Shown here one piece after another: positions 4,194 through 58,246 of a stretch of 64,000 bases of DNA; within the stretch, counting starts at the first letter, position 1; every line of letters begins with the position of its first letter. The position numbers and the translations under genes were made by a program. The DNA is taken from positions 2,622,981-2,686,980 of the forward strand of contig OY282494.1 in assembly GCA_958296385.1 (NCBI GenBank). Direction: 5' to 3'. The notes beneath the pieces were generated by a model, which worked only from the letters and a program-made list of their open reading frames with translations, searched no databases and was not told the origin of the DNA. The stretch comes from an uncultured Dehalococcoidia bacterium (lineage in GTDB: Bacteria; Chloroflexota; Dehalococcoidia; Lucifugimonadales; UBA3495).

Positions 4194-4268
4194 TGGTCGG
4201 GGTGGGCAGATTCGAACTGCCGATCTCCTGCTCCCAAAGCAGGCGCCTTGCCGCTAGGCCACACCCCG
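4194..4268 (-). tRNA. tRNA-Pro (anticodon UGG), CCA encoded
   Basis: The reverse complement folds by hand: acceptor CGGGGTG/CACCCCG, D stem GCCT/AGGC, anticodon stem CCTGC/GCAGG with loop TTTGGGA, T arm GGCAG-TTCGAAT-CTGCC, then ACCA. Confidence 0.85.
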
Positions 4269-4314
4269 ACGGCGCCGGCTGGCTACTGACTACGCGCAAC
4301 GCGTCAGCGTCAAG

Positions 4315-4386
4315 TACCCCCGTGGAGATTCGAACTCCAGTCTCTGGCTCCGGAGGCCAGCACTCTATCCACTGAGCTACGGGGGC
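4315..4386 (-). tRNA. tRNA-Arg (anticodon CCG), no encoded CCA
   Basis: Reverse complement is GCCCCCGTAGCTCAGTGGATAGAGTGCTGGCCTCCGGAGCCAGAGACTGGAGTTCGAATCTCCACGGGGGTA. Anticodon stem CTGGC/GCCAG with loop CTCCGGA, T arm TGGAG-TTCGAAT-CTCCA. Confidence 0.85.
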
Positions 4387-6012: not shown

Positions 6013-6029
6013 GCTGGCACAACCGAATA

Positions 6030-6125
6030 GTTCCGGCGGGAGCTTGGGTAGCCAGGCTGAGAGGGTGGCCGCAAAGCCATCGACCGCAATACCTGATCCG
6101 GGTAATGCCGGCGTAGGGATATGCA
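6030..6125 (+). promoter_or_regulatory. TPP (THI-box) riboswitch
   Basis: GGCGGGAGC...GGCTGAGAG...ACCTGATCCGGGTAATGCCGGCGTAGGGA matches the conserved CUGAGA and ACCUGAUCNGGNUAAUGCCNGCG cores of the thiamine pyrophosphate riboswitch. Confidence 0.85.
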
Positions 6126-6138
6126 GCGCATCTTTCGT

Positions 6139-19663: not shown

Positions 19664-21175
19664 GGTTCCAGAGGTTCAGTATGACTACCACAACCATCAC
19701 CGCCGTCAAGAAGCCGCCACCGCCACCGTTACCGTCCGCACCGGCCCCGGCCCGTTTCCGGTTCCCGGACCCGCCTGAACGTGAGATTGATGAGTCAATG
19801 ACTAACCACCGACAAATGACCTATACGGGCCACTGCCACCACTTGGCCCGGTATCTCGGCAATGAGGCTACCACCCTGGTCACCGCGGACCGTTGGATTG
19901 CGCGTGGGCCGCGCCCCGGCACTACCGGCCTGCGTCTGCCTGATTTGCTCGTGGCTTTTGACGTTGACCCGCAGGCTTACCATGCCACCCGGGGTTATCT
20001 AATCACGGAGCAGGGCAAGCCGCCGGACTTTGTGCTGGAAATAGCCTCGCCAAGCACGGGCAAGGTGGACGTTGAGGAGAAGCCGGCTGATTATGCGGGG
20101 CTGGGCATCCTGGAGTACTGGCGCTTTGACGAGACGGGGGATTCTCACGGAGTGCGGCTGGCCGGCGACCGTTTGGTGAATGGCCGGTATGAGCCTATCC
20201 CTATTGAGGAACTGCTGGATGGGTCTTTGCAGGGGTACAGCCCCGTGCTGAACGTGTACCTCCGGTGGGAGCCAGTGCAGGGGGAGCAGGGTATGTTGGG
20301 CTGGTATGACCCGGAAACGGGGCAGCACATCCCGACGTTTGACGAGGAGAGGGAGGGGCGCATCATGGAGAGGGAAGGCCGCATCATGGAACGGGAGGGG
20401 CGCCTCCGGGCCGAAGCCAGGGTTCGCGAATTGGAGGAGGAAAACCGGCGACTGCGTGGCGGCTAGCCCCCGGCGCTGCTCAAACCGTGTCCCATCAGGT
20501 TCCAGAGGTTCAGTATGACTACCACAACCATCACCGTCGTCAAAACGCCGCCACCGGCACCGTTACCGTCCGCACCGGCGCCGGCCCGTTTCCAGTTTCC
20601 GGACCCGCCTGAACGTGAGATTGATGAGGCAATGACTAACTACCGACAAATGACCTATACGGGCCAATGCCACCATCTCGTCCGGTATCTCGGCAATGAG
20701 GATACTACCCTGGTCACTGCGGACCTTTGGATTGCGCGGGGGCCGCGCCCTGGCACTAGCGGCCTGCGCCGGCCTGATTTGCTCGTCGCTTTTGACGTTG
20801 ACCCGCAGGCTTACCATGCCACCCGGGGTTATCTAATCTCGGAGCAGGGCAAGCCGCCGGACTTTGTGCTGGAAATAGCCTCGCCAAGCACGGCCAAGGT
20901 GGACGTTGAGGAGAAGCCGGCTGATTACGCGGGGCTGGGCATCCTGGAGTACTGGCGCTTTGATGAGACGGGGGATTCTCACGGAGTGCGGCTGGCCGGC
21001 GACCGTTTGGTGGATGGGCGGTATGAGCCTATTCCGATTGAGGAATTGCCGGATGGCTCGTTGCAGGGGTACAGCCCCGTGCTGAACGTGTACCTGCGGT
21101 GGGAGCCCGTGCAGGGGGAGCAGGGTATGCTGGGCTGGTATGACCCGGAAACCGGGCAGCACATCCCGACGTTTG
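19664..21175 (+). repeat. Tandem direct duplication (two ~0.67-kb copies, period 834 nt) spanning both Uma2 genes and their 17-nt leaders
   Basis: GGTTCCAGAGGTTCAGTATGACTACCACAACCATCACC occurs at 19664 and again at 20498. The copies stay colinear with scattered substitutions until the C-terminal tails diverge. Confidence 0.85.
19681..20466 (+). CDS. Uma2-family (DUF820) PD-(D/E)xK endonuclease, copy 1
   Basis: PDLLVAF...PDFVLEIASPST...EEKPADYAGLGILEYWRFD is the Uma2 D...E-x-K signature. The C-terminus carries EREGRIM tandem repeats. Confidence 0.8.
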   Translation: MTTTTITAVKKPPPPPLPSAPAPARFRFPDPPEREIDESMTNHRQMTYTGHCHHLARYLGNEATTLVTADRWIARGPRPGTTGLRLPDLLVAFDVDPQAYHATRGYLITEQGKPPDFVLEIASPSTGKVDVEEKPADYAGLGILEYWRFDETGDSHGVRLAGDRLVNGRYEPIPIEELLDGSLQGYSPVLNVYLRWEPVQGEQGMLGWYDPETGQHIPTFDEEREGRIMEREGRIMEREGRLRAEARVRELEEENRRLRGG

Positions 21176-21405
21176 ACGAGAGGCAGGAAGCCCAACTCCG
21201 AGCCGAGGCCCGCACCGAACAGGAGCGAGCCGCCCGACTCCAGGCTGAATCCCGGGCTGAACAGGAACAGGCCGCCCGACTCCAGGCTGAAACTCGCGCC
21301 GAGCAGGAGCGGTCTGCCCGCCTCCAGGCCGAGGCTCGCTCCGCGCAGGCTGAGGCGGAGGTGCGGGCTTTGCGGGAGCGGCTGCGGTTGCAGGGGGGTG
21401 GCTGA
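20515..21405 (+). CDS. Uma2-family (DUF820) PD-(D/E)xK endonuclease, copy 2
   Basis: Near-identical to copy 1 over roughly the first 220 aa. It has a different C-terminal tail made of three 14-aa R(A/T)EQE(R/Q)(A/S)ARLQAE(S/T/A) repeats. Confidence 0.8.
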   Translation: MTTTTITVVKTPPPAPLPSAPAPARFQFPDPPEREIDEAMTNYRQMTYTGQCHHLVRYLGNEDTTLVTADLWIARGPRPGTSGLRRPDLLVAFDVDPQAYHATRGYLISEQGKPPDFVLEIASPSTAKVDVEEKPADYAGLGILEYWRFDETGDSHGVRLAGDRLVDGRYEPIPIEELPDGSLQGYSPVLNVYLRWEPVQGEQGMLGWYDPETGQHIPTFDERQEAQLRAEARTEQERAARLQAESRAEQEQAARLQAETRAEQERSARLQAEARSAQAEAEVRALRERLRLQGGG

Positions 21406-21524
21406 CCCGGCCGGGGGGTGGGGGCCGTGCTTTAGTCTGGCAGCTGACCTGTAAAGGCTGAGTCAGCTGGCCGGGGTGGGGGCCGGGGGGGTTGTTTTGC
21501 TTGAAGTGGGTTTTGGGGGGGTGT

Positions 21525-21552
21525 TTGTTTGGGGGTGGGTTTGTGGTATTAT
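21525..21552 (+). promoter_or_regulatory. Candidate promoter of the giant gene (TTGTTT, 16-nt spacer, TGn-extended TATTAT)
   Basis: TGGTATTAT at 21544-21552 with TTGTTT at 21525-21530. Motif resemblance only. Confidence 0.3.
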
Positions 21553-21688
21553 GCGCTATTGTGATGTTTGCTGTTAATTTTTGCCGCTCGGCTCCCTTTG
21601 GGGGTTGGAGGGTTTGCTTATGGTAGCCGGTTGGGGACGCGCTTTGCCGGCGCTGGGTCTGGGTCTGGGTCTGGTGGGTGTGAAAGTC

Positions 21689-21708
21689 GGGGGGGGGGGG
21701 GGGGGGGG
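21689..21708 (+). repeat. Homopolymeric G20 tract at the 5' end of the giant gene
   Basis: Counted directly: 20 consecutive G, ending 7 nt before ATG 21716. Confidence 0.95.
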
Positions 21709-21715
21709 TAGTGTG

Positions 21716-24700
21716 ATGCCCCGCCTGGGCCAGCGCCAGGGCTATCGCCGTCGCTTTGGGCGCGGCCGGTTTGTGCTGGCCGGGTTGGTTGCGCTTTTGC
21801 TGCTGCTGGCGGGGCTGGCTCTGTTTGGCGGCGCCGGGGATGTGTTGGCGCAAAGCACCACCGACTACGATACCAACGACAACAACCTCATCGACATCAC
21901 CACCCTGGACCAGCTTAACGCCATCCGGCACGACCCGGACGGCGACGGCGACCCGACTTCCGGGGGAGCTACGGCTTACAACGACGCCTTTCCATCTCGC
22001 GAATCCGGCGCTACCGGGCGCATGGGCTGCCCCAATACCTGCGCCGGCTACGAGCTGCGGGCTGACCTGGACTTTGACACTACCGGCAACGACGACATCG
22101 CCGACTCGCCTTATGCCAGCTGGACGCCCATCGCGGGTTACACAAACACGTTCCGGGGCAACGGGCATACCATATCTAACCTGACCATCAACGCAACCGG
22201 CAGCTCGGGCGTCTTGTACGCCGGGTTGTTCGCCAGTATCAGCAGCGCCGTCTCCGGCGTGGGCTTGCCTAACGCCAAGATAACGTCATCCCACACCGGC
22301 AACTTCCTGCTGATGGGGCCGCTGGCCGGCAACGTGGCTACCGGCGGGACGGTAACCTCCAGCTGGGCCACCGGCAGCGTTACTTCCACCGCTACCGGCA
22401 GCGGCTTCAAGTTCATCGGCGGGCTGGTGGGTCATAACGAAGGCCCGGTGCGGGCCAGCTATTCCGGGGCATCGGTAACGGCAACGACTACGGCCACGGC
22501 GGTGAGAGTCGGCGGGCTGACCGGAGGGCTGAACCTCGCTAGTGGCACGGTGACCGCCAGCTATGCCACCGGCGCGGTATCCGGCGGCAGTGGCAACGGC
22601 TCCCACGTGGGCGGCCTGGTCGGTCAGTTCCGCTCCGACGACCCCAGCATCATCGCGTCTTACGCCACCGGAGCCGTTACCGGCGACGCCGGCGCCAAGG
22701 GCGGGCTGGTCGGCAGCGCGGGCAGCGGCACCATCACCGACAGCTATTGGGATGTTACCGCCAGCGGCGTTGCCGATGATGCCGACAGCCCGGCCGGCGA
22801 GGGCAAGACTACCAGCGAGTTGAAAACGCCCATCGCCTACGGCACCGGCGCCAGCATCTACGCCAACTGGAACGTGAACGCGGACGGCGATACTACCACC
22901 GGCGCAATGACGACCGGCAACGACGACCCCTGGCACTTTGGCACGGCCAGCCAGTACCCCATCCTGCAATTCGACCGGGATGCCGCCGCCATCGACCGGC
23001 AGTACGGCAACGCCGCCGTGAACTACGACGCCAATAACAACAATCTGATTGACGTTGCGACGCTGGCCCGGCTGGACGCCATCCGCTACGATTTGGACGG
23101 CGACGGGGTGACGGCAACCGGGGCGGACGCCGTTAAATACGCCAGTGCGTTCCCCGGCCTGACCGCCGGGATGGGCTGCATGAGTGCCTGCATTGGTTAC
23201 GAGGTGCGGGACGACCTGGACTTTGACACGGGCACGGCCGGCAATCGTGGCGATGATACTTATGCCAACGGCACTCTGGGCTGGGAACCCATCGGCAACG
23301 CTACTACCACGTTCACCGCTATCTTTGACGGCAACAGCGACGACTACACCATCTCCAATCTGTACATCAACCGCCCTACTGGGGACGGGGTGGGGCTGTT
23401 TGGGCGGACTAACGGCGCTACCCTGCGGAACATCGCCCTGGAGGACGTGGCGGTAACCGCCGCCAGTCGGACTGGCGCGCTGGTGGGCCAGGCCGACGGC
23501 GGCACTATCAGCAGCAGCCACTCCACAGGCGGCACGGTTACGGTAAGCGGCGACGTGGCCGGCGGGCTGGCGGGGCAGGTTAATGGCGCCGGCGCCATCA
23601 GCGGCAGCTACTCTACCGTCAACGTTGTCGCGTCGGGGGGCGAGGCCGGCGGGCTGGTTGGGCTGCTGATGAGGGAAAGAGTCCTGGTGAACGTCGCTAA
23701 CGTCAGGTTTGATACCGGCAGCGTTAGCGGCAGTTATGCTACCGGCACGGTTGGGGGGACGACTAACGTGGGCGGGCTGGTGGGCCGCGTCTATCTGGGC
23801 AGCATATCCGACAGCCACGCTACCGGCGCCGTCAGCTCGGCCAGCGCCGGTGCCAAAGTGGGCGGGCTGGTGGGCTATTTGCAGATCGAAGCCGAAACCG
23901 CCAGCGCGCCACCAGTGCAGGCAGCCGGCAGCATTAACGCCAGCTACGCCAACGGCGCGGTCAGCGTTACCGGCGCCAACGTCCACGCCGGCGGGCTGGT
24001 GGGAGAAAACTACGCCGGTCTGATCAAGGATGAATTCACCCAAAGCCGGGCCACCGCCAGCATCCGGGCCAGCTACGCTACCGGCGCAGTGGGGGGCACC
24101 GGCGCGGCCAACCGGCTGGGCGGGCTGGTCGGCTACAACAACGCCAACCGCACCGAGCCGAGACCGGGATTCGCCCCGCGCGGCACTGCCACCGCTGAAA
24201 TCATCGCCAGCTACTCCAACGGCCGGGTAACCGGCGCCGGCGCCGGCACCCAAAAGGGCGGCCTGGTGGGCGGAAGCCGGGGCCGACAAAGCACCCCCGG
24301 AGCCAGCGGGTACAGCGATACCGTCATTACCGACAGCTATTGGGATGTTACGGCCAGCACGGTTGCCGATGATGCTGACAGCTCGACCGGGGTGGGCAAG
24401 ACGCTCAGCGAGTTGCAGACGCCCACCGCTTACGGCACGGCTACCAGCACGCCGCCCAGCATTTACGCCAGCTGGAACCTGAACCTGGACGCCAGCGCCG
24501 GCAACGACGACCCCTGGGACTTTGGCACTAACAGCCAGTATCCCGTCCTCAAGCACAACCGCGACGCCGACGCCATCGCCCGGCAAAGGGCCGCCAACCA
24601 GGTCATCGACTACGATGCCAACAGCAACAACTTGATTGACGTTAAGACGCTGGATCAGCTGAACGCCATCCGGCACGACCTGGACGGCAACGGCGATGCG

Positions 24701-45700: not shown

Positions 45701-47317
45701 GACGACATCGACACGCTAACGCACACGCCCAGCGCCGGCGGCTACCTGGCCACCGCAGCCGCTACGGTATCCGTAATCGCGCGGGACACCACCGCGCCGG
45801 TCATCACTTTGACCCCGGCCAGCCTGCCGTCCCTGAATGAGAACTCCACCGACGACTACACCGTGCGACTGGCGTCTGAGCCGGCGGCTACTACCACCGT
45901 CGCCATCGCCAGCAGCAACGCCGGCGTCACCGTTTCACCGAACTCCCTGAGCTTCACCACTGCCAACTTTGGCACTGCCCGGCCGGTAACGGTAACCAGT
46001 ACCACCGACAGCGACGCGGTGCACAACGCGTTCGGGATAACGCACACGCCCACCATCCGGGGCATCGCCAGCCCGGCCACGCCGCTGCCCCTGCTGTTCC
46101 TGGAGCCGGTTCCCCCCGGCGGCGGCGCCACGACGACTCCCATCGAATTCCTGGCGCCGACGCCCGGCAACACCGCAAGGTACGCCGTTGACGCCTCAAC
46201 GACGCACACGATAACCACCGACGCCGGCGTCCCCGAGGGCGTAATCATCCGGTCAGTAGGCGGCGTGGGCCTGGCCTCGAGCACCACCATAACCATCGGC
46301 ATCGCGGCGCCCGCCCCCCCAATCACACATCCCGGCTACACCCTGGACCCGGATACACTGGTGGACATCACCGTAACGCCGGTGCCAACAGTCGGCCTGC
46401 AAGTCTGCCTGCCCCTGCCCCAGGCCGGCGGCCCCGGCGGCCCCCGGATGCTGCACTACGATGGCAGCCGCTGGCGGCTCGTGTCGGGCTCCCGGCAAAT
46501 CGGCAGCCAAGTCTGCGGCACCGCAACCGACTTCTCCCCCTACATCGCCGGCCGCCTCGCCCAACCCATCGCTGAGCCGTTGCCTCCGTCCGATGGCGGT
46601 GGCGGCGGCGGTGGCGGCGCTGGCGGTGGCAGCTTCGGCGGCGGTGCACCGGCCCCGACAGCCACGCCGGCCCCAACGCCTACGCCCACGCCAACTCCGG
46701 CCGCACCGGCGCCAACCCCGACGCCGGTAACGCCCACGCCGGCCCCCGAGCGGCCCACGCCCACGCCGGCCCCCACACCCACGCCAGCGCCGCCGCCGGC
46801 CGCATCCCCCACGCCAACGCCGGCCGCCCCGCCAACAGCGGCCCCGCCGCCGCCGCCCCCGGTAGCCGCCGCTATCCAGCAGCCGGCCATCATCGGAGAT
46901 ATAACCTTCAGCAACGACAGCCCCGAACCGGGCAGCGGAATACTGGTAAGGTTCCCCGTAACCAACCCCGGAACCATCACCGCGGAGTACCAGCTAATCC
47001 TCGAAGTAGCCGGCGAAACCGTCCAGCGCCAAACGGTAACCATCCCGCCCGGCGCAACCCAGGATTTGCGCCTGCCCATCATCGCCCCGGACGCCCGCGC
47101 TGCGGTAATCGTCAGGGTGGACGAGCAATCCCGGACGGTAATCCTGACGCCAGCCCGCCCAGCAACCGGAACGGGAACCGGCACCGGCGCCGGAACCGCC
47201 GCGCCTGTCGACGAACCGGCCGGCGGCGCGCCCTGGCTGCTAATCGGCATAATCGCCGTAATCGCACTGGCCATCATCGGCGGCGGCATCGCCCTGCTGA
47301 TGCGTAGGCGCGGCTGA
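21716..47317 (+). CDS. Giant (~8,500 aa) secreted, C-terminally membrane-anchored modular surface protein (GLUG beta-helix modules, cadherin-like and Calx-beta-like beta-sandwich arrays, CARDB-like domain)
   Basis: One uninterrupted frame (the track gives 21581-47317, 8578 codons). ATG 21716 yields MPRLGQRQGYRRRFGRGRFVLAGLVALLLLLAGLALFGGAGDVLA/QS, a classical signal peptide. The protein sequence is coherent and repetitive but not degenerate throughout. It ends with PWLLIGIIAVIALAIIGGGIALLMRRRG. Confidence 0.9.
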   Translation: MPRLGQRQGYRRRFGRGRFVLAGLVALLLLLAGLALFGGAGDVLAQSTTDYDTNDNNLIDITTLDQLNAIRHDPDGDGDPTSGGATAYNDAFPSRESGATGRMGCPNTCAGYELRADLDFDTTGNDDIADSPYASWTPIAGYTNTFRGNGHTISNLTINATGSSGVLYAGLFASISSAVSGVGLPNAKITSSHTGNFLLMGPLAGNVATGGTVTSSWATGSVTSTATGSGFKFIGGLVGHNEGPVRASYSGASVTATTTATAVRVGGLTGGLNLASGTVTASYATGAVSGGSGNGSHVGGLVGQFRSDDPSIIASYATGAVTGDAGAKGGLVGSAGSGTITDSYWDVTASGVADDADSPAGEGKTTSELKTPIAYGTGASIYANWNVNADGDTTTGAMTTGNDDPWHFGTASQYPILQFDRDAAAIDRQYGNAAVNYDANNNNLIDVATLARLDAIRYDLDGDGVTATGADAVKYASAFPGLTAGMGCMSACIGYEVRDDLDFDTGTAGNRGDDTYANGTLGWEPIGNATTTFTAIFDGNSDDYTISNLYINRPTGDGVGLFGRTNGATLRNIALEDVAVTAASRTGALVGQADGGTISSSHSTGGTVTVSGDVAGGLAGQVNGAGAISGSYSTVNVVASGGEAGGLVGLLMRERVLVNVANVRFDTGSVSGSYATGTVGGTTNVGGLVGRVYLGSISDSHATGAVSSASAGAKVGGLVGYLQIEAETASAPPVQAAGSINASYANGAVSVTGANVHAGGLVGENYAGLIKDEFTQSRATASIRASYATGAVGGTGAANRLGGLVGYNNANRTEPRPGFAPRGTATAEIIASYSNGRVTGAGAGTQKGGLVGGSRGRQSTPGASGYSDTVITDSYWDVTASTVADDADSSTGVGKTLSELQTPTAYGTATSTPPSIYASWNLNLDASAGNDDPWDFGTNSQYPVLKHNRDADAIARQRAANQVIDYDANSNNLIDVKTLDQLNAIRHDLDGNGDATHADYVAAFPNAVTGMGCPDTCAGYELLNDLDFDTDDDNDVDSNDDYPNWTPIGTAVAPFTTTFDGNNNVISNLTITSNSNRVGLFGQSEGTLSGIGLENVNVTGSAQFGYIGTLAGRNLGTVISSWATGTVEGSNRGAQTGGLVGRSFNSSIRASYADVAVTVASSAQQASFGGLVGRAYGTRIIASYATGSVSGGFSNSSNAGGLVGNLVVNSSIEESYATGRVTVGVGVLIGGLAGRLENSSTPRSYWDSIASGRGGSGSKTTYELRGPTAYGTATSTPPSIYASWNVNVDGNAATGDSTGRDDPWDFGTDTQYPVLKFDGMDVAAQQGRQPNISNDSSLSALAVSEVTPLVPAFATGTDTYTAMLPVGSAARTVTVTATTTDMTLAASVTYSAVAGGGSAVTADADPGTAGHQVVLGGPSTVITVTGRAQDGSRSSYTVTITGIPENDYDTNNNDLIDVISLDQLNAMRYDLNGDGTAESNGVLYANAYPLPAARMGCPNGCTGYELRNDLDFDTINDDNEADAPYDNWVPIGTDGAQFSGAFQGNGHSISNLNVNAGANVVTLGLFGTVSGAISGVGLPNARIAGARAQATAIGTLAGTLGGGGTATSVWATGSVASSDAGGGTKYIGGLVGYQAGTVLASYSGATVTVDNAATSVYAGGLTGLVQGSVIASYATGAVSGGTGAGAHVGGLAGRVNAAGSRITASYATGTVTSGGANVGGLTGSVTNSVNVGSSYWDTITSGIADDADNTAPEGKTTYELRMPTAYGSSSADLYAFWNLDLDNADNDNTLTTGRDDPWEFGTNAQYPILKYGGLASSTQRAILPSPSSTDSTLSALSVTGVALRPVVFDAATLAYTAALGADSDLSSVTITATPTDMASVSISAVIGSGAAVTSDADTVAAGYQVALGSPTTTVTITVAAADGSRTTYTVTITVPPADYDADNDNLIDVRTLDQLNAIRYDLGGNGVADDSTDQATYSMAFPRAAAGMGCPSTGCTGYELLNDLSFDTNGDGVISFLDGAYEHWEPIGKSGAPYTATFKGNGHTIDRLNIVAEDVGQVGLFGAVGVARDSGNNITMTGAISGVGLPNANVSTQSTATNVVGTLVGYLDGGSVTSSWAAGKVEEKSEDNSGKQVGGLVGIASGAVRDSYARVSVMTDARISDVHAGGLVGQLNGGTITASYATGAVSGGIQNGSYVGGLVGWVSNTASITASYATGQVSINTGVNGGGLAGNMAGSIMNSYWDVTTSGVADDADSPAGEGKTTIELQTPTAYGATGIYSAWNVNVDGVSGIDDPWYFGTSSEYPILKHQRSVINIDWQRNPTLTKKNYDDDGDNLIDITTLAQLDAMRYDLSAGGEGSIAEANRIKYAAAFPGLTPGMGCDDGCTGYELRRNLDFDTDNTGAVDSSDAYPNWTPIGSSGSPYGGEFKGNNFTISNLTINAPASIREMGLFGGAGGAISGVGLPNVKITGAAVALNAGALAGVLSGSVTSSWATGTLEARNSGLGGFKYVGGLVGWMVSSGDYVRASWANVAVTAPTSFVSAGGLIGLLDSGDVIASYALGAVSGGEGGPSRTGGLVGAVTGNGSTITASYATGPVTGQDGSSVSGLFNTLINTPTIANSYWDSIRSGIADDSDDDAPEGRATYQLRGPTAYGASTTTDLYFAWNVDVDNADGDNDLTTGTDDPWDFGTNLLYPVLQYDGMDAAGQKAVQPTISTDSTLSGLSVAPARLVETFAAGTDSYTATLPAMSTALSVTVTATTTAMTARGVSYSAVAGGGSPVTADADTGADGHQVTLVGPMTDITITVMAEDGSTQSYTVSITVPENDYDDNDNGLIDVRTVEQLNAIRYDLNGDGTTNAGDAAAYAAAYPYPMAGMGCQAVDHDNDANTANQPVCTGYELRQNLDFDTTGDDDTADAPYENWVPIGAGSTQYSGEFKGNNFTIANLTIDAPASIDEVGLFGGPVGAISGVGLENVKITGAAVALKAGALAGVSQGSVTSSWATGTLAASDGSNSIKQLGGLVGRLVNSDVIASWANVSVSAPDSAIGIYVGGLVGIVNNSDVIASYATGAVSGGGAGSRIGGLAGFMEGGGSTITASYATGPVTGGNGSTQSGLLSAFVGTITNSYWDAIRSGIPDDADDAAPEGKTTYELRSPTAYGASTSTGLYVAWNVDVDNADGDNNLATGGDDPWDFGTNLEYPVLKYDGADAAGQKTGQPTPSTDGTLSGLSVAPAMLTTTFAAGTASYTATLPPGATPLTATVTATTTAATARGVSYSAVAGSGSPVTADADTSADGHQVTLVGPLTVITITVMAEDGSPQTYTVSITVPTHDYDTNNNGLIDVTTLERLNAIRYDLNGDGTANAGDAAAYAAAYPYPMAGMGCPSATCTGYELRNALDFNTGEANIRTDDTYYNDGEGWAPIGGVTGRFATAPSETYTGAFNGNGFAISNLQIDRTGSDSSDADSYIGLFGDASGRIEQVALVNAEVKGETVVGTLVGRLASGGSIVASYVQGGLVEGHSYIGGLVGINQPNASITASYTDIRVNNTYTGSIFGGTGYATGGIAGIHAGRIIASYAMGSVERQPLTGTRASTGGLSGFTGSNSPAQATTNSYWDTVRTGQATEFGFPRTTAGGKATYELRTPTNAGGYAGIYANWNLNIDGDTGTGTPTTGLDNPWDFGTGMQYPALRYGGHSAAAQFARQPDIGTNDELSSLTVAPATLAPDFSASVIEYTATLPDSNPAALTVAGVTATTTDVSISAVIGSGAAVTTDADAVAAGYQVTLGSPNTVITVTATAPDGSTTTYTVTISIPANDYDADDDGLIDITTLAQLNAVRYDLDGDGAVSSGDAANYASAFYYPAAGMGCAAVDHDNDANTADQPVCTGYELMADLDFDTDDSGGVDSSDTYPNWAPIGSVSSSFTGDFEGNGHTIANLTINNTSGSGALRLGLFGNIGGSVSGVGLPDASISSSYSGTLLMGPLAGNVIGNGTVTSSWATGSVESTDTGGAKFIGGLLGHSERPVRASYSGASVTAPNTATGVSAGGLAGALFSTSTVTASYATGAVSGGTGSGSHVGGLVGQFRSSTASIIASYATGAVTGGGTGANVGGLVGSAGTATITNSYWDVTASGVADDANSPAGVGQTTTALQTPTGTTGIYSGWDVNVDGESGNDDPWHFGTASQYPILQFDRDVIAIERQYSNVGKDYDDDNDNLIDVTTLAQLDAIRYDLNGDGAGWAKGSASARYATAFPGLSAGMGCPDGCAGYELLADLDFDSNDDGEVNSSDAYPNWTPIGTAAAPYTATFNGNHRTIANLTVNAAASVGRVGLFGEASGAISRVGLPDVSISAAAAGLLAGALVGFLDEDGTVTSSWATGSVTATDTGSDAQSIGGLVGETSGAVRGSYAGVSVTAPNTATNVRAGGLVGYSAVVTASYATGAVAGGAGNDSDTGGLVGLSGATGAGSAVATASYATGAVTSGIGANVGGLAGRSVFMSIPTVNSYWDTEKSGIAAGASSYGVGKTTSELQTPTAYGDIYAMWNVDVTDTGNIDDPWDFGLNSQYPALKYDGMDVLRQGRNTILFSTDALDVTEEDSAGANYTVRLGGAPKAGTTVTVAITSPADDDVTIATDGTFSDSATLRFTDADYTTGQTVTVKAGGDANLANESLTLTHTASGAGSGFADATADLTVTVIDNDTGAILLRQSGSDITALTITEEASSDTEYQVSLDQPPLASVSITITSSDADAVRIHDGSSTFTDSDFGSSHTLTFAAGTTTAQTVTIRAPHDSDGNEGSATLTHTAAGTGHGYNNASTTLSVTVTDDDTPAVLLWEAAAETASSTLTVAEEGSGSYRVRLQTQPTADVTVTVTASGDLTIDDSTGNDFATTKTLTFTGGSGGNWETAQTIRVRAAADVNLANETLTITHAVTSTDPAYTGLSDVSLTVTVEDDDTNAAAIILKQNGTATSTLSLIEGAAAAEYTVELSHEPSHDVEVTVTAAGDVTIDGPDVPTTLTVSETLTFTAGSYGPQIIRAQAASDSDLFDDTLTITHAAADATSGMASGYAGVSKDLAVTVADDDQGEIRVTSGGSVVELGVTEEHSGTVTYDVELVQTPLANVTVTVAVPSDYTDVLEIDGPDAGLTFSSSETINFTPTDHGKKTITLRAKADDDDDGATFSLTHTAADATSTASGYDGVTKDQLVRVTDNDVPGITLSVTTALAVREENASPVTYTVVLDTKPGADVIVTVTAGTNLEIDDSAGDDFGGSETLTFTSMDWNTAQTIRVNALADDNVVHETTAITHVVTSTDTAYNAVGDESLAVNVTDSDTAAIVLATTTLMITEGGSDTYTVKLSNEPSAEVTVTITSPADDDVTIATDGSTFSDSETLTFDADWNTGKTVTVQTAEDDDDLGNDTAILTHTASGVGSGYESASTTALTVTVEDNDSGDILLRQSGADIATLTIDEEASDTTYQVSLAQAPLADVSITITSSDADAVRIHDGGSTSTDADFGSSRTLTFDAGVTTAQDVTIRAPHDHDGIPGSSTLTHAAVGTGHGYNNARATLDVTVNDNDTPAVLLWEATDDSASSTLTVAEEGSASYRVRLQTQPSADVTIDVTAAGDLTIDDGDGTFGTTEELTFTSGSSGNWNTPQTITVRAAADNNLADETPAITHAVTSTDTNYGSLSDVSLTVTVKDNDTGSIVLTDSSNDPLTALTIDEGAAPITYKVALSHKPLADVTVTFNRTSGNVTIDTNNDNTFAATGETLTFTTTNWNVAQPVRVQAGDDFNLADDSGSINHVASNAATGVASGYAGISKALSLTETDTDTPTIKLTHATTGNAITELTVTEGNDVEYKVELSHQPLHPVTVTVTSNDSDAAIIEGPDSGSDFSDSETVLFTVSNWNTAQTVTVRAPQDNDDDNESPTLTHTPTDTTSGSESGYAGITAVTLPVTVMDDDLPGILLWEAAADTASSTLTVAEEGSASYRVRLQTQPSAAVTVTITAGTNLEIDDNNDNDFGTTETLTFTVMNWNTAQTVRVNALADDNLADETPALTHDIASISDTAYNAVSNVTLTVTVKDNDDAAIIIKQSGSEITALSLTEAAAASSYTVELSNQPSANVTVLVTATDDVTIDDNSGTDFDTTETLTFTANTWDDPQTIRARAATDPDLSDDDTTITHVASDATVGSVSGYAGVRKTLDVTETDSTTPTVVLTDSGGDAITTLDVTEDAGNVTYNVGLSNPPLAAVTVVITSGDADAVQIDDGGTFGTSRTLNFAIGATAAQPVTVKAPHDNDDDNESVTISHNPDGAGSGGYETIASQDLTVAVDDDDDPAIALYHATDLTATTTLTVTEEATATYRVRLASQPTQSVTVTITPSAGLQVDDGGGTFANSGTLTFPASDWDDLQTVTVQAAEDVDLTDTTITIAHSTDSTDTDYARAAGLSATLTVTVEDNDTASIILSETGTLALTEQAAAVNYTVKLSHQPAASVTVTVTSAGAVTIDDNTGTDFSTSETLTFTGGGSGNWNTPQTIRVQAGDDSNLEAETSTITHAIASTGDANYNALEDVSLSVSIADNDTGDIELTQSGSAIAANTLAINEEASNTTYSVGLSEAPLAQVTVTITSGDADALQIHDGGSDFNDADFSGSRTLTFASGVTTAQEVTIRAPHDGNSISERVTITHVAGGTNNGYVGVSKSLTVNVADNDTPGIALVISELTVTEENTSGGTYDVALQTQPNADVTVTVTAPDGLTIDGPAAGTNFTSSVTLDFTTINWETGQTIAVRAAADDNLSHDTHQISHVAADATSTASLYAGLSKDLAVTVEDNDNPTIIVATSTLTVMEGDTETYTVRLSHQPAHGVTVTIASGASDGVEIDGPDNGATFSNSETLFFTNSASSWQTPQTVTVRGLSDADLSDSTGNTLTHTASNTVSSQDSLFTSAPAVTLTFTVDDDDTGDILLTQNSAAITSLTINEEHATDTTYQVALSEAPLADVTITVTTDDNDAVTIDGPDGNSDFTNSEALLTFNSTNYATPQTVTIKAPADNDPDNESVTLTHTASGGTNNGYGGVSKDLSITVSDDDSPNIALSVSALTVAEENTSPATYTVVLATQPTADVTVTVTASGDLEIDNNTGNDFGSSETLTFTGGATGNWETAQTIRVNATGDNDLKDDTPTITHNPSSTDNDYNVLDNKTLNVTITDDDTGSIVLEQGGSALTTLALSEGGSTVNYTVELSHQPTANVDVTLTATDDVTIDNASGNDFDTTETLRFTPGNWQTAQTIRARAANDNDLGNDTTTITHVAADAATGVTSDYASVSNTLDVTVTDTTTPTVVLTDSGGDTITALAVDEEGSNVTYDVALSNRPLDSVTVTVTSGNVAVTVDDGDGTFGSSDALTFTTTNWSTAQPITVKALADDNSTNESVTLTHAAADATSGMTSGYAGISDVTLTVNVDDDDDPEILLWHPTDDTATTSLTVTEEGTQSYRIRLNTEPRAAVNVTVSARAGLEIDNGSGTYGSSRTLNFSTTNWNSPQTVTIRATADDDLAVGSGTLSHAARNAGSTASDYHGLSKSLPVTITDNDTPTIIISETGTLSVDEGGNTTYTVWLSNRPAAGVTITITSSATDDVEIATDGTFGDSATLRFSTGDWNSRKTVRVQGLPDNDLSNDLNNTLTHAASNTTAADSLFASAADAELSVTVTDTTTPSIVLTQSGAAISGALGINEEGGNVTYGVGLSNAPLAPVTVTITSGNAAVEIHDGSSAYNDANFSSSRTLTFATGATAAQMVTLRAPNDPGPDHETVTLTHAGSGSLSGYESVSDATLTVNVTDNDTPALLLTPTVLTVTEEDSAGESYTVSLTTQPSADVTVAVTAPAGLTIDGPDDATDFTSSETLTFTNANYAAKTITVKADADDNLIANNFTITHNPSSTDSNYNALPNSSLSVTVTDDDTGSLILSETSRTVIEGETTGQTYTVKLSHRPNAAVTVTITSTGKAAATPASLTFNTSTWDREQTVTVKAVADVNIIDDIDTLTHTPSAGGYLATAAATVSVIARDTTAPVITLTPASLPSLNENSTDDYTVRLASEPAATTTVAIASSNAGVTVSPNSLSFTTANFGTARPVTVTSTTDSDAVHNAFGITHTPTIRGIASPATPLPLLFLEPVPPGGGATTTPIEFLAPTPGNTARYAVDASTTHTITTDAGVPEGVIIRSVGGVGLASSTTITIGIAAPAPPITHPGYTLDPDTLVDITVTPVPTVGLQVCLPLPQAGGPGGPRMLHYDGSRWRLVSGSRQIGSQVCGTATDFSPYIAGRLAQPIAEPLPPSDGGGGGGGGAGGGSFGGGAPAPTATPAPTPTPTPTPAAPAPTPTPVTPTPAPERPTPTPAPTPTPAPPPAASPTPTPAAPPTAAPPPPPPVAAAIQQPAIIGDITFSNDSPEPGSGILVRFPVTNPGTITAEYQLILEVAGETVQRQTVTIPPGATQDLRLPIIAPDARAAVIVRVDEQSRTVILTPARPATGTGTGTGAGTAAPVDEPAGGAPWLLIGIIAVIALAIIGGGIALLMRRRG
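21863..35400 (+). repeat. Ten tandem coding modules (1.1-1.6 kb each) of the GLUG type
   Basis: Module starts ((D/N)YDxNxNxLID) at 21863, 23021, 24608, 26054, 27527, 28691, 30182, 31691, 33134 and 34301. Each module contains GNGHTISNL, many GGLVG repeats, and a SYWD...DDPWDFGT..QYP.L end. Confidence 0.85.
35411..46108 (+). repeat. About 29 tandem coding units (~105-128 aa) of a Calx-beta/cadherin-like beta-sandwich, including a 6-unit super-repeat
   Basis: Each unit has the pattern LTV.E....Y.V.L...P.A.VTVT.T......ID.......LTFT..NW.T.QT..V.A..D.D...E...I.H........L.VTV.D(N/D)D. Units 1-6 (35411-37654) are colinear paralogs of units 7-12 (37655-39904). Confidence 0.8.
46595..46862 (+). repeat. 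Low-complexity Gly run followed by a Pro/Thr/Ala linker (coding)
   Basis: GGGGGGGGAGGGSFGGGAPAPTATPAPTPTPTPTPAAPAPTPTPVTPTPAPERPTPTPAPTPTPAPPPAASPTPTPAAPPTAAPPPPPP. Confidence 0.9.
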
Positions 47318-53789: not shown

Positions 53790-54962
53790 ATGGAGAATCC
53801 AATAATGAATAGCATATCGCCCCGCAGCCTCCGGGCTGTCCGGTTGCCGGTCGTACTGGCGCTGTCGCTGTTGGCGCTGTCGCTGATTGGATGCAGTGGA
53901 GCCGGTTCGCCGCCGGCGCCGGCGCCCGCCCCAACGTCGGTTCCGCCCACGCCCGCGGCGGAACGGGAGCCCACCATGCCGGCGCCCACCAGCACCCCGG
54001 TTCCGCCCACGCCCACGGCGGAACGGGAGCGCACCCTCATCGTGTACTCCGGCCGTTCGCAAACCCTCGTTGACCCGCTGCTGGAATCCTTTGGCGCGCA
54101 GACCGGCGTCACCGTTCGGGTCAAGTATGCCGGCAGCGCGGCCACGGCGGCGACGCTGCTGGAGGAGGGCGACAAAACCCCGGCCGACGTGGTGTTTATG
54201 CAAGACCCCGGCTCGCTGGGCATCCTGGCCGACGCCGGGATGTTTGCCCCGCTGCCGTCGGCAACGCTGGACAAGGTTGACCCCAGGTTCCGTTCTCCGG
54301 CCGGCCTGTGGGTCGGCACGTCGGGCCGCGCCCGCACCGTCGTCTATAACACCGACGCCATCAACCCGGCAACCGACCTCCCGCCGTCCATCCTGGACTT
54401 CACCAAGCCGGAGTGGAATGGCCGGGTCGGTTGGGCGCCGCGCAACGGTTCCTTTCAGGCTTTCGTAACCGGCCTGCGCGCGCAGCTGGGCGAGGACGCC
54501 GCCCGCGCGTGGCTGGTGGGAATGCGGGACAACGGCGCAGTGGAATACCCCAAGAACACCCCCATCGTGGCCGCCACCGCCGCCGGCGAGGTGGACGTGG
54601 GCTTCGTGAACCACTATTACCTGGAACGGTTCCTGGCCGAGCAGGGGCCCGGTTTCGGCGCGCGCAACTACTTCATCGGCAACGGCGACCCCGGCGCGCT
54701 GGTGCTGGTGGCCGGCGTGGGCATCCTGTCCGCATCGGATAACCGGGATGTCGCCGCGGAGTTCGTGGACTTCATGCTGTCGGCCACGGCCCAACAATAC
54801 TTCGCCTCGGAAATCAGAGAGTACCCGGTAGCGGCCGGCATAGCCCCCGCCGGCGAGCTGCCCCCCCTGGAATCCCTGAACCCGCCCAACGTTGACCTGG
54901 GCAGTCTGAGCGACCTGGAGGGCACCCTGAAACTGCTGCAAGAAACCGGCGTACTCCCGTAA
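53790..54962 (+). CDS. ABC transporter substrate-binding lipoprotein (iron(III) FbpA/AfuA-like, family 1 SBP)
   Basis: Signal peptide with lipobox LSLIGC, a duplicated PT linker (PTPAAEREPT / PTPTAERERT), then LIVYSGRSQTLVDPLL...VVFMQDPG..., typical of ferric SBPs. Confidence 0.85.
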   Translation: MENPIMNSISPRSLRAVRLPVVLALSLLALSLIGCSGAGSPPAPAPAPTSVPPTPAAEREPTMPAPTSTPVPPTPTAERERTLIVYSGRSQTLVDPLLESFGAQTGVTVRVKYAGSAATAATLLEEGDKTPADVVFMQDPGSLGILADAGMFAPLPSATLDKVDPRFRSPAGLWVGTSGRARTVVYNTDAINPATDLPPSILDFTKPEWNGRVGWAPRNGSFQAFVTGLRAQLGEDAARAWLVGMRDNGAVEYPKNTPIVAATAAGEVDVGFVNHYYLERFLAEQGPGFGARNYFIGNGDPGALVLVAGVGILSASDNRDVAAEFVDFMLSATAQQYFASEIREYPVAAGIAPAGELPPLESLNPPNVDLGSLSDLEGTLKLLQETGVLP

Positions 54963-55136
54963 CGTCCGGCAACGGCGCGGGCGCACGCAACTACGGATAA
55001 AGCGCCGATGACGTCCGCAGTGAATACGCCCGCTGTCGTAAATAAGTGTTGACACAGCATCCGCTTAAGAATATCCTGACGGCAGGATGCTATGCGAGCG
55101 GATACCGGGTTTGCGGATACCGGATTGGGGGAGCTG

Positions 55137-55361
55137 ATGTTTCTGTGCGTGTGCAAGGCGGTACGGGTTTCCGAGGCGGTCGCGGCGGCCAAAGCCGGCA
55201 TCGATTCGCCGGAATCAATACGGGATTTTTTCGGCTTTGACGACGACGAATGCTGCGGCCGCTGCGCCGTTCACATCGAGTCGGTAGCCGCCCGCGTCCA
55301 GGTCGAGTTGAGCAAATCCGACAGCATCGTGAGCCCATCCCTGGCGCTGGGCCGCGTCTAG
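55137..55361 (+). CDS. bfd: Bacterioferritin-associated ferredoxin (BFD-like [2Fe-2S] domain)
   Basis: MFLCVCKAV...ECCGRCAVHI gives the CxC...CxxC ligand pattern. GGGGGAG RBS before ATG 55137. Lies immediately upstream of bfr. Confidence 0.8.
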   Translation: MFLCVCKAVRVSEAVAAAKAGIDSPESIRDFFGFDDDECCGRCAVHIESVAARVQVELSKSDSIVSPSLALGRV

Positions 55362-55457
55362 TCCGGCGCTAGCGTCCGGCGCATCGCATCCCCGTAGGGC
55401 CAGCGGCGGCGTGTTACCATTAAAGTAGCCGCCAAATGACCCGAGGAGGAACCTGCG

Positions 55458-55931
55458 ATGAAAGCCAAAGCCGGGGTTGTTGACCACCTGAACAACCTGC
55501 TGACCATTGAACTTACCGCCATCAACCAGTATTTTGTCCAGGCCGAGATGTGCAAAAACTGGGGCTTTGAGCGCCTCTACCAGCGGTTCCACGCCACCAG
55601 CATGGAGGAGATGGAGGACGCCCAGCACCTAATCCGGCACATCCTCTACCTGGAGGGCGTCCCCAACCTGCAACGCCTCAACCAGGTAATGGTAGGCGAA
55701 ACCGTGCCGGAAGACCTGGAACTGAACCTGCAAGCCGAACTAAACGCAGTCAACGCCCTGGTCAACGCCATCACCCACTGCGAACAAGTGCAAGACTACA
55801 CCACCCGCGGCATCCTCCAAGAGATGATTCGCTCCGAGGAGGAGCACGTCGACTGGCTGGAAACCCAACTCGAAACCATAAAAATCATCGGCCTGGAACT
55901 CTACCTCAACCAGCAAATACACGCAGATTGA
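55458..55931 (+). CDS. bfr: Bacterioferritin
   Basis: MKAKAGVVDHLNNLLTIELTAINQYFVQAEMCKNWGF...SMEEMEDAQHLI...EEEHVDWLETQL: ferroxidase-centre E/H residues and the Met heme-ligand context. Confidence 0.92.
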   Translation: MKAKAGVVDHLNNLLTIELTAINQYFVQAEMCKNWGFERLYQRFHATSMEEMEDAQHLIRHILYLEGVPNLQRLNQVMVGETVPEDLELNLQAELNAVNALVNAITHCEQVQDYTTRGILQEMIRSEEEHVDWLETQLETIKIIGLELYLNQQIHAD

Positions 55932-55954
55932 TTACCGCACCACTGAGGCTTTGC

Positions 55955-55992
55955 ACGCCGGCGCCGGAAACGCGCCGGCGTTTGCATTTTGC
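55955..55992 (+). terminator. Intrinsic terminator after bfr
   Basis: Perfect 10-bp stem ACGCCGGCGC / GCGCCGGCGT with a 7-nt loop, followed by TTGCATTTTGCG. Confidence 0.65.
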
Positions 55993-56068
55993 GAATCGCC
56001 GGCTTGACGTGGTGCCGCCCGCAATCCCAGACGTGCGGTCTGGCAGTTCCTGCGCCGGCCGACCTTTG

Positions 56069-56461
56069 CTAGGCTCCCTTCTGCTCCGCTATGGCGTCCA
56101 ACTCGGCGTTAATTCGTTTCCATTTCCACGGGATGGGCTTTCCATGATGGGATAGCCCGTTATAAGTCCGGCCTTGCGGCCTGATTTGGATGATGGGCTT
56201 CCGAAAGCTGTCAGCCATGTCCGTTTCTATTTTGACTCCAGGGGCATTGTGCGTGTCCTGACCAATCAGGACGACTACAACGCCACACGAGCGTATGGCG
56301 TTCCGCGCTTTGGCTTTCCACTCATCATTGGGATACGATTCACGGAGCGAACAATTGCGAATGCGATGATTGGTTTCGGTTTTGGCCTGCCCGAAAAAAT
56401 CGGCCCTGAGCTTGTTGTCTTTGTCGAACTCGAAACTCACAAAGATGTTGAGCGTAGCCAT
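56069..56461 (-). CDS. TIR-like domain protein (DUF1863 / ThsB-like), stand-alone
   Basis: MATLNIFVSFEFDKDN...SCGVVVVLIGQDTHNAPGVKIETDMA...KPIIQI follows the beta-alpha pattern of MTH538/ThsB-type TIR-like domains. AAGGAGA RBS 5 nt before ATG 56461. The gene is visibly A/T-richer than its surroundings. Confidence 0.65.
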   Translation of the reverse strand: MATLNIFVSFEFDKDNKLRADFFGQAKTETNHRIRNCSLRESYPNDEWKAKARNAIRSCGVVVVLIGQDTHNAPGVKIETDMADSFRKPIIQIRPQGRTYNGLSHHGKPIPWKWKRINAELDAIAEQKGA

Positions 56462-56543
56462 TGGTTCTCCTTTCGGTTTCCGCAAAGCGAACCGCCGCTT
56501 TGGTGACATTTGCCGGTGGACAGCGGCCCGTTGGGGGTGGTAG

Positions 56544-57878: not shown

Positions 57879-57913
57879 CCGGAACCGCTTTACCGGATCT
57901 GCTTCATCCGGGA

Positions 57914-58246
57914 CTACTTCAGCGGAACGGCCAGCGAGATGCGGGCCTCCTCGCCGGTGTTGCGGATGATGTGGCCGTGTCCGGTCAGGTCTTCGGCAAC
58001 CAGCACGTCGCCGGGGCCAAACTGCCGCTTGGAACCGTCGGCAACCTCAATCTCCGCGCCGCCCGACATAAACACCACGTACTGATGACGCGGCGCAGTG
58101 TGGTAATCCTGCCACCAGCCCGCCGGACGCTGCCCAACGGTAATATCGCCGGGGCCAACGTCATTGGCAATCTCGGCAAACTCATCCGCCGTAACATCCT
58201 GAAAATGCGACTCCCCATCATCGCCAGCGTAAATGCGAACAATCAT
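57914..58246 (-). CDS. Cupin-domain protein (paralog 1)
   Basis: 110 aa. GESHF...HTAPRHQYVVFMSGGAEIEV.DGS...GPGDVLVAEDLTGHGH. GGGGGAGAG RBS. Confidence 0.7.
   Translation of the reverse strand: MIVRIYAGDDGESHFQDVTADEFAEIANDVGPGDITVGQRPAGWWQDYHTAPRHQYVVFMSGGAEIEVADGSKRQFGPGDVLVAEDLTGHGHIIRNTGEEARISLAVPLK

Follow-up and report, generated by a model that had tools for sequence, protein, structure and literature searches.

We analysed a stretch of 64,000 nucleotides (the window) from the genome of an uncultured Dehalococcoidia bacterium of the phylum Chloroflexota (contig OY282494.1, positions 2,622,981 to 2,686,980), in which two very long G/C homopolymers lie at the 5' ends of two genes for surface proteins. 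The first, a run of twenty G on the + strand (G20, 21689–21708), precedes a giant gene, and the second, a run of 22 C on the same strand (C22, 59315–59336), precedes a gene for a leucine-rich repeat (LRR) protein. A preliminary description of this DNA had reported both runs, the first ending 7 nt before an ATG at 21716, and had proposed that G20 is a slipped-strand expression switch. Both runs are present in the sequence as reported. Here we describe the anatomy of the two genes, the related loci in other genomes and the readings that these allow.

The two tracts and the genes behind them

The reading frame of the giant gene opens after a stop codon at 21575–21577, crosses the G20 tract and ends at 47317, comprising 8,578 codons. 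It includes a TTG at 21581 from which, as the preliminary description held, the frame reads through the twenty G into the main open reading frame (ORF). In its fused form the gene occupies 21620–47317 on the + strand, with 8,565 codons from an ATG at 21620 and 8,533 from the ATG at 21716, and the tract is read as Gly7. The product consists of a signal peptide, GLUG repeats, cadherin-like domains (Pfam Glug and Cadherin-like), a PT-rich linker and a C-terminal domain with a transmembrane anchor (46868–47314, + strand). The signal-peptide coding region spans 21716–21850 on the + strand (MPRLGQRQGYRRRFGRGRFVLAGLVALLLLLAGLALFGGAGDVLA|QS); its cleavage site is a candidate placed by eye and by alignment with the N-termini of homologues, not by a predictor, and the mature surface protein is predicted to begin with QSTTDYDTNDNN.

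The signals for expression lie upstream of the tract, on the + strand. A candidate extended -10 promoter element (TGGTATTAT, 21544–21552) is accompanied by a weak -35-like TTTGTT (21524–21529); the -10 element is conserved in the paralogues of OY282456.1 described below, which is consistent with a promoter function. Because the -35 is poor, a strict sigma-70 scan found no site on the + strand ahead of the giant gene. The only consensus sigma-70-like site in this region lies on the - strand (21548–21577; TTAACA, 18 nt, CATAAT), overlaps the + strand TATTAT, of which it is probably the mirror image, the patch being rich in A/T. A perfect Shine-Dalgarno (SD) sequence, GGAGG, is found at 21607–21611, 8 nt before the ATG at 21620, and is among the best SD matches of 18 start-codon contexts inspected in the window, where the canonical motif is GGAG(G). 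From this ATG a leader ORF, MVAGWGRALPALGLGLGLVGVKV (21620–21688), leads over 23 codons up to the tract and, at G20, forms an in-frame N-terminal extension. The gene caller applied to public contigs also starts the giant gene here (position 4106 of contig L001). Immediately 3' of the tract, the seven nucleotides TAGTGTG lead to the ATG at 21716, so that TAGTGTGATG (21709–21718) contains a TAG (21709–21711), a TGA (21714–21716) and an ATG (21716–21718). It provides a leader stop in both non-fused frames right at the second ATG, and the TGA and the ATG overlap as UGAUG.

The LRR surface-protein ORF (59337–61868, + strand; matches to LRR families) is organized around its tract in a related manner. 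Its signal peptide (ALDPVKRRLIATAALLAVVLAGIGVALMMDGRSASA|QS) begins directly after C22, which would encode poly-Pro, and no canonical start codon follows the tract before a TTG at 59394 that falls inside the hydrophobic core. The candidate leader VTLLGSFRALLSS (59276–59314, + strand) would start at a GTG at 59276; its frame is the only one in which canonical starts (GTG 59276, TTG 59282 and TTG 59303) precede the signal peptide. A small upstream ORF, MLLIQMRRRMRFGVYLQ (59226–59279, + strand), ends in a TGA that overlaps this GTG (GTGA), possibly a further layer of translational coupling. A weak candidate promoter is suggested by the sequence at 59126–59153 on the + strand (TTGCTT, 16 nt, TATGAT preceded by TG), although the strict sigma-70 scan did not call it. 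A role for C22 itself in a promoter was considered, as a TATCAT resembling the -10 of the OZ241860.1 genes described below ends 2 nt before the tract, and set aside: such a transcript would have no start codon for the signal peptide.

The C-terminal anchor of the LRR protein (61413–61835, + strand) is homologous to that of the giant protein (55% identity over 149 aa); a tblastn search of the window gave no third copy. The C22 gene is therefore, as stated earlier, the only other gene of the window with this anchor. The signal peptide, the GLUG and cadherin-like repeats, the LRRs and the shared C-terminal transmembrane anchor identify the products behind the two tracts as surface proteins.

Both tracts stand apart from the other G/C runs of the window. 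The run counts are geometric, with 26 runs of length 6, seven of length 7 (among them a G7 at 21485–21491) and one of length 8 (a G8 at 432–439); above 8 there are only the runs of 20 and 22, with nothing between them. The chance expectation for the window is 3.7e-6 for G runs of at least 20 nt and 2e-7 to 1.7e-6 for C runs of at least 22 nt. G20 and C22 are both well within the range, from about 8–9 nt upwards, in which G/C homopolymers are hypermutable in length. G20 is also present in hifiasm contigs from PacBio HiFi reads (ENA assembly ERZ19489113), which match the window at 100% identity over 5–8 kb and are not independent evidence of its exact length. The value of 20 represents one consensus, and a call for a homopolymer of 20–22 nt may be off by about 1 nt. 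Two neighbour-gene look-ups for independent copies of the G20 locus gave only contigs identical to the window.

Runs at one position across a gene family

The comparison set comprised the window and 27 related loci, or 270 kb. All 16 G/C runs of at least 9 nt in this set lie between the start codon and the signal-peptide coding region of family genes, with lengths of G9–G22 and C14–C28, and 16 of the 19 family 5' ends carry such a run. A scan of metagenome contigs returned only distant GLUG proteins, and these served as a negative control: the 236 kb surrounding 80 such genes, all from other habitats, hold one run of at least 9 nt. Apart from a few metagenome-assembled genomes (MAGs) of other phyla, the relatives found in a genome-contig scan come only from Dehalococcoidia/Chloroflexota MAGs. 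The preliminary description had let its proposal depend on homopolymers at orthologous loci; homologous genes in at least four other assemblies have G/C runs at the same position.

We aligned the 5' end of the giant gene with those of L004, L022 and the strain variant L023 from OY282456.1 (ptg000330c, same sample), a co-resident Dehalococcoidia genome. Four blocks emerge. The first, TTTGTG[G/C]TA[T/A][T/A]AT, contains the extended -10 and is common to the window and the OY282456.1 paralogues; the -10 element that had been pointed out at 21544–21552 is thus kept in the paralogues of another species. The second is TTGGAGG-N8-ATG, shared by the window, L004, L022 and L023. The third is the G run itself, with G11 in L004, G11 in L022 and G9 in L023, and the fourth is [T/C]AGnnTGATG followed by (G/C)CCCGCC, of which TGATG is kept in all three relatives. 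By comparison, the leader codons that separate the ATG from the G run are conserved neither in sequence nor in number. Thus, the start signals are conserved and the leader peptide is not.

A similar arrangement with poly-C instead of G is found in OZ241860.1, where six paralogous giant genes have an alignable upstream region. The order there is TTGCCG, 18 nt, TATCAT, then ACGGAGCC-N8-ATG CT[G/A] AA (MLNPNRR in most copies), then poly-C of 15, 18, 18, 23, 23 or 28 nt, then GCAAC[A/T]GGGG... and the signal peptide; two of the six are in frame and four are out. Other assemblies contribute C24, G22 and C28 (L026–L028) and the pair C14 and C7 (L111 and L112). A short run, or none, is seen at the homologous site in L005 (C6), L112 (C7) and L013, which has no run of at least 7 nt near the start.

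The imprint of the runs is also visible in public gene calls. Among 121 homologues, 14 called N-termini cross a run of at least four Pro or Gly just before the signal peptide, and many have the called start inside a truncated signal peptide. Protein searches recovered neither the giant nor the LRR protein: the C-terminal anchor gave a single fragment at a contig end, the N-terminus of the LRR protein gave no match and the N-terminus of the giant protein gave no match longer than 616 aa.

Near-identical loci differ in tract length. L022 and L023, HiFi contigs of strain variants in one sample, carry G11 and G9, and the frame flips from in frame to out of frame between them; their other differences are a few single-nucleotide polymorphisms (SNPs), an indel in a CAAT repeat and two single-base indels. 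The C22 of the window is C23 in contig_39 of a second sample's assembly (L024, ERZ19489098), the sole indel over 54914–60380 (5.4 kb), accompanied by one SNP. No other homopolymer differs over this interval, which argues against a generic homopolymer error. L111 (C14) and L112 (C7) have flanks that are about 97% identical. Tract polymorphism with constant flanks is therefore seen at homologous loci and at the C tract of the window, and the copies of G20 are all identical. A further look-up by way of NadC found a contig that starts only after the C tract.

Taken together, G20 is very probably a real, family-specific and hypermutable simple sequence repeat (SSR), and we think it reasonably probable that it is one contingency locus in a set that spans the gene family in uncultured Dehalococcoidia. 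The link between G20 and C22 is no coincidence, as the preliminary description had argued: runs stand at the same position across the family and have different lengths at near-identical loci.

Several observations concern the surroundings of these genes. The CAAT indel noted above is a second SSR difference, with three units in L022 (about 1455–1466) and two in L023, located between the -10 and the SD. Two tandem genes of the Uma2 family of putative restriction endonucleases (19681–20466 and 20515–21405), 94% identical over 683 nt, immediately precede the giant gene; the giant paralogues of OZ241860.1 are preceded instead by one to three tandem PaREP1-family genes. The upstream regions 21393–21521 and 59109–59145 are strongly G/T-rich on the coding strand, with repeated GGGGGGTGGGGG-type motifs. 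Within 21405–21491, an 8-bp hairpin (CAGCTGAC...GTCAGCTG) stands between two copies of GGCCGGGG(GG)TGGGGGCCG; it may be the terminator of the Uma2 gene or a promoter-upstream element. Two extra hifiasm contigs, L001 and L002 (ptg019824l and ptg019201l), show no difference from the window at the 5' end, and both stop within the giant gene, with called products of 2,604 and 8,180 residues that continue past the contig end. This points to strain-level variation or to tangles of the assembly graph in the internal repeats of the gene. L075, an unrelated contig (37% GC), has a G11 at 805–815, about 55 nt before a flagellin-like gene. The product of this gene was also a match to the GLUG query, and the run is possibly an independent intergenic phase-variation tract. 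RNA families (Rfam) match the window only at two tRNAs and a TPP riboswitch, and at neither tract; these are ordinary features (riboswitch 6026–6138, + strand; tRNA-Pro(TGG) and tRNA-Arg(CCG) within 4194–4386, - strand).

Presence/absence polymorphism also affects the LRR gene, together with its promoter region and C tract. Up to about 59039, contig_1 of ERZ19488967 (L025) and the window share 96% identity; beyond this point the contig contains a complete gene for a 657-aa RCC1-repeat protein, where the window has a 108-aa RCC1 remnant (58761–59087, - strand) followed by the LRR cassette. Between the window and L024, differences other than the tract cluster at 60384–61192 in the second half of the LRR gene, mostly in its PT-rich linker. 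The linker indels are of 6, 3 and 12 nt, all multiples of three, and this part is hypervariable between samples.

A probable translated leader and its alternatives

The position of the tract between an SD-bearing ATG and the signal peptide raises the question of whether it is translated. In the loci with such an ATG, the leader ORF reaches the tract free of stops in 13 of 13. In seven loci (L009, L011, L012, L014, L027, L028 and the LRR gene of the window), no ATG, GTG or TTG follows the tract before the hydrophobic core of the signal peptide is reached, so that there the signal peptide can be made only by translating through the run; two of them, L009 (C15) and L012 (C18), are in frame from the leader ATG. 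A second ATG is present in the giant gene of the window and in L004, L005, L006, L010, L022/L023, L026 and L111/L112, and is distinguished from the loci without it by a single ATG/ACG change within a conserved GCAAAA[T/C]G. Judged by these comparisons, the leader ATG looks like the primary start of the family and the second ATG like an optional one. The preliminary description had the giant gene open at ATG 21716, which is retained as a second start, but the GGAGG and ATG 21620 chosen by the gene caller lie upstream of it. Its own alternative proposal, in which an N-terminal extension is switched on and off, is strengthened by the conservation of GGAGG and ATG 21620 and by the seven loci without a later start.

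We computed the consequences of tract length for the giant gene. From ATG 21620, runs of 17, 20 or 23 G fuse the leader to the main ORF, which yields a 32-residue extension followed by MPRLGQ.... Runs of 18, 21 or 24 G stop the leader at TAG 21709, which begins 7 nt and ends 4 nt before ATG 21716, and runs of 16, 19, 22 or 25 G stop it at TGA 21714, which overlaps that ATG. The earlier expectation that the upstream frame fails to read through with 19 or 21 G is borne out by these frames. Every length leaves some route to the giant ORF, and the fused state alone uses the strong upstream start directly. Read from the sequence, a high/low switch is more likely than a strict ON/OFF switch at this gene. 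Among the relatives, one non-fused frame of L004 and of L023 runs about 50 codons across the second ATG, and in L010 the leader ends at an ATGA overlap.

The LRR gene offers a stricter case. A canonical start is joined to its signal peptide at C18, C21, C24 and C27 only. At C22, as assembled, the leader is out of frame and gives a 22-residue product (VTLLGSFRALLSSPPPPPPPRT*), and C23 also stops early. As far as the reading frames indicate, the gene is OFF as assembled, with GTG 59276 as its candidate start. For both tracts, which lie near the 5' end of their ORFs, a change in length thus alters the predicted expression in silico.

We consider it probable, with some reservation, that the G20 tract is a slipped-strand SSR switch, of the phase or 'volume' type, on the giant surface-protein gene. 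Transcription would start downstream of the extended -10 (21544–21552), and ribosomes recruited by GGAGG would begin at ATG 21620 and read 23 codons before they enter the G run. Slipped-strand mispairing in replication would alter the run length and thereby set the frame of the leader. At G17, G20 (as assembled) or G23 the leader would be fused, and the strong upstream start would drive a pre-protein with the 32-residue extension; at G18, G21 or G24 the leader would terminate at TAG 21709, and at G16, G19, G22 or G25 at the TGA 21714 that overlaps ATG 21716. In these non-fused states the giant ORF would be reached by re-initiation or by independent initiation at ATG 21716, with the G run as an SD-like sequence and a presumably lower output. 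The C22 tract of the LRR gene would follow the same principle with no back-up start, C22 being an OFF state. What can be directly observed is how the loci are built, that their signals are conserved, that long runs are confined to one position and that near-identical loci differ in tract length. We infer that slippage occurs at a useful rate in the population, that ribosomes use ATG 21620 and that the states differ in expression. The slipped-strand switch first proposed for G20 is therefore the best reading of a family with variable runs, with the difference that it would act through a translated leader and not through SD spacing.

A number of points weigh against such a switch. The leaders in frame with the main ORF are 5 of 13, which equals the chance expectation and therefore does not discriminate between the hypotheses; this share shows no selection, and the same result is expected if the tract is untranslated. 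In the giant gene a second ATG follows directly after the tract and stops end the leader there in both other frames, a layout that would fit equally well with expression that does not depend on tract length. The other copies of G20 (L001, L002, L029 and L030) are 100% identical to the window, show no length variation and are not independent. The consensus length of homopolymers of 20–28 nt is uncertain by about 1 nt even in HiFi assemblies, and L026–L028 are contigs of 3–5x coverage. Finally, slippage of RNA polymerase or of the ribosome on such long tracts could blur the states encoded in the DNA.

Slippage of this kind leads to a serious rival, which we nevertheless regard as unlikely. RNA polymerase slippage, together with tRNA-Pro and tRNA-Gly slippage on CCC-C and GGG-G, would yield all frames from any tract length, and the tract would be a constant, frame-agnostic attenuator. 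Only a fraction of initiations would then give the costly giant protein, and DNA length variation would be a tolerated by-product, not a heritable switch, an outcome to which we assign the same low probability. Ribosomal +1 slippage is known on CCC-C. The 9-bp RNA:DNA hybrid would fall entirely within the run, tract lengths of 14–28 reach or exceed the top of the Neisseria range (9–21), the in-frame fraction is that expected by chance, and the stops and the back-up ATG of the giant gene make all three frames productive. Transcriptional slippage at homopolymers is moreover established in bacteria (PMC1088944, PMC5009743). The shorter homologous tracts (G9, G11, C7 and C14), however, are in the range where DNA length sets the frame, and a constant attenuator does not account for the confinement of the runs to surface-protein genes. 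The documented cases of transcriptional slippage in bacteria are, in addition, mainly on A/T runs.

A second rival, of similarly low probability, leaves the tract untranslated. Here the gene would start at ATG 21716, the tract would belong to the 5' untranslated region, where the G run would pair with the anti-SD or tune ribosome loading or mRNA structure, and the upstream ATG would be incidental. The pairing would involve GGGGG against CCUCC with one G.U pair. G20 ends 7 nt upstream of ATG 21716, within the SD range of 5–10 nt, and that ATG lines up with M(T)PR, the start in the other loci that have a second ATG. In L005, L006, L010 and L026 the second ATG is preceded by GGGGTGG and CAAA, in L004, L022 and L023 by G9–G11 and CAGA, so that a G-rich run stands 3–4 nt before the second ATG in most other such loci, L111 and L112 having only GGG, 5 nt upstream. 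The chance-level fraction of in-frame leaders also agrees with an untranslated tract. Against this, the perfect GGAGG serves ATG 21620, the SD and ATG block (21607–21622) is among the best-conserved upstream parts across species, and this SD is better than that of most genes in the window. The homologous tract is coding in the seven family loci without a start after it, and in the mRNA of the LRR gene the tract reads as poly-C, which rules it out as an SD. Folding predictions for the RNA around the tract gave no greater stability than shuffled controls. An SD-like role of the G run at ATG 21716 is possible, and the 7-nt position fits the headline claim of the preliminary description, in which the tract was the SD or spacer of this ATG; as a whole, this claim is less supported than the translated leader. 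The part of it in which tract length modulates spacing fails, as a change in run length leaves the distance between the 3' end of the run and the ATG constant.

Other ways in which the tract could act on expression were rejected. A spacer between -35 and -10, as in Bordetella fim or Neisseria opc, does not apply, since the -10 lies 137 nt upstream of G20 and no -10/-35 pair flanks the tract. Hairpins that hide the second ATG or its SD (the G run with CCCCGCC, or poly-C with GGGGTGG) do appear in minimum free energy folds, with z-scores of -1.2 to +1.4 against shuffles, and such sequestration is speculation. A G-quadruplex is possible for G20 but not for the homologous G9–G11, and is hence not a shared mechanism.

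Still less probable is a non-adaptive hot spot, in which a short G/C run in a dispensable leader was expanded by slippage, for example under weak mismatch repair, and is harmless. The leader peptide is unconserved, some family 5' ends have a short run (C6 in L005, C7 in L112) or none of at least 7 nt (L013), and there is no frame bias, all of which would be expected. Runs of at least 9 nt are, however, absent from all other sequence examined (about 270 kb), including other intergenic and leader regions, and at least three clades have gained or retained long runs, of G as well as of C. The runs precede two unrelated passengers, the GLUG giant and the LRR protein, which have in common only their export signals and anchor. 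Without a back-up start, moreover, the run inactivates the gene in two of three frames and hence is not harmless.

An artefact, namely a much shorter true tract or a contig chimeric at the run, is highly improbable: homopolymer length is the weakest point of a long-read consensus, and 20 and 22 may be off by about 1, but hifiasm contigs from HiFi reads exclude the poly-G artefact of two-colour Illumina sequencing, both flanks are colinear with homologous loci of other genomes, the C tract recurs (as C23) in the assembly of a second sample, and equivalent tracts occur in at least five assemblies. The concern over such an artefact voiced in the preliminary description is thereby answered as to the existence of the run, while its exact length may be off by about 1 nt.

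Known systems and meaning for the family

The slipped-strand switch favoured here has close relatives in pathogens. The repeats of pilC and opa in Neisseria reportedly lie in the part of each gene that codes for the signal peptide. In opa the repeat is a pentamer, not a homopolymer, in the 5' coding region; the likeness lies in a multigene family with an independent tract at each locus, mostly out of frame, as in the six OZ241860.1 paralogues. The pilC gene resembles the present loci in having a G/C homopolymer within the reading frame, near the 5' end of an adhesin gene, where a frameshift switches translation. In Neisseria, genic G/C tracts of 9–21 nt mediate the phase variation of pilC, pglA and lgtA, with pilC tracts of G9–20 on record, and pentamer repeats that of opa (PMC5953494). 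The differences are in the host, which here is a Chloroflexota (Dehalococcoidia) from a metagenome, probably a symbiont, and there a proteobacterial pathogen; in the tract, which here lies upstream of the signal peptide in an unconserved leader and reaches 28 nt; and in the outcome, as the second ATG and the stops in both other frames of the giant gene imply a switch between fused and coupled states, not a simple ON/OFF.

The LRR gene can be compared with inlA of Listeria monocytogenes, where a 5' homopolymer inactivates the LRR surface protein InlA, reversibly by slippage and with a very short truncated peptide (Orsi et al. 2010, PMC2831843). In both cases a homopolymer lies at the far 5' end of a gene for an LRR surface protein, and the C22 gene gives a peptide of 22 residues. 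Listeria is a low-GC Firmicute and the tract of inlA a poly(A) of about 7 nt, whereas here a poly-C of 22–23 nt lies in a genome of 65% GC and is part of a family-wide pattern.

Tracts in Campylobacter and Helicobacter are typically 8–13 nt long, in low-GC genomes that are not known to have MutS/MutL mismatch repair. The poly-G/C loci of Campylobacter jejuni and Helicobacter pylori, the 'phasome', concern genes for surface structures, are both intragenic and intergenic, and occur in populations of mixed lengths (PMC8355987, PMC8437040). The likeness is in the many G/C homopolymers concentrated in genes for surface structures; the targets here are giant adhesin-like proteins, not glycosyltransferases.

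Stop/start coupling (UGAUG, AUGA) also has a parallel at the giant gene, where in two of three frames the leader ends at, or 4 nt before, ATG 21716, and in L010, with its ATGA. The difference is that the relation of the upstream to the main ORF is set here by a mutable homopolymer, so that the same locus could, as its sequence implies, be a fusion, a coupled pair or (L004 and L023) an overrunning upstream ORF. We know of no described case with exactly such a three-state arrangement. In the literature that we searched, we found no report of homopolymer-driven phase variation from Chloroflexota or from sponge-type symbiont communities.

For annotation, gene callers mis-start, truncate or extend the genes of this family depending on tract length, which gives truncated signal peptides and poly-Pro or poly-Gly N-termini. 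For the organisms, the kinds of MAGs that share the family indicate that the habitat is probably that of a sponge symbiont. Tentatively, and with less confidence than in the switch at the giant gene itself, we put forward that sponge-associated Dehalococcoidia may run a large 'phasome', in which dozens of genes for giant adhesin-like and LRR proteins carry a G/C run in an SD-ATG leader and are displayed in a stochastic and heritable manner. If so, the genes with a second ATG would toggle between three states, with the leader fused, stop/start-coupled or overrunning the start, and a mutualistic symbiont lineage would have the combinatorial surface variation of the pathogen type; the likely selective agents would be phagocytosis or recognition by the host, or phage. 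Homopolymer phase variation is textbook knowledge for mucosal pathogens. If the switch is confirmed, stable symbionts would stochastically vary their largest surface proteins, including an LRR protein of the 'eukaryotic-like' kind, and this would bear on how they escape phagocytosis by the host or phage.

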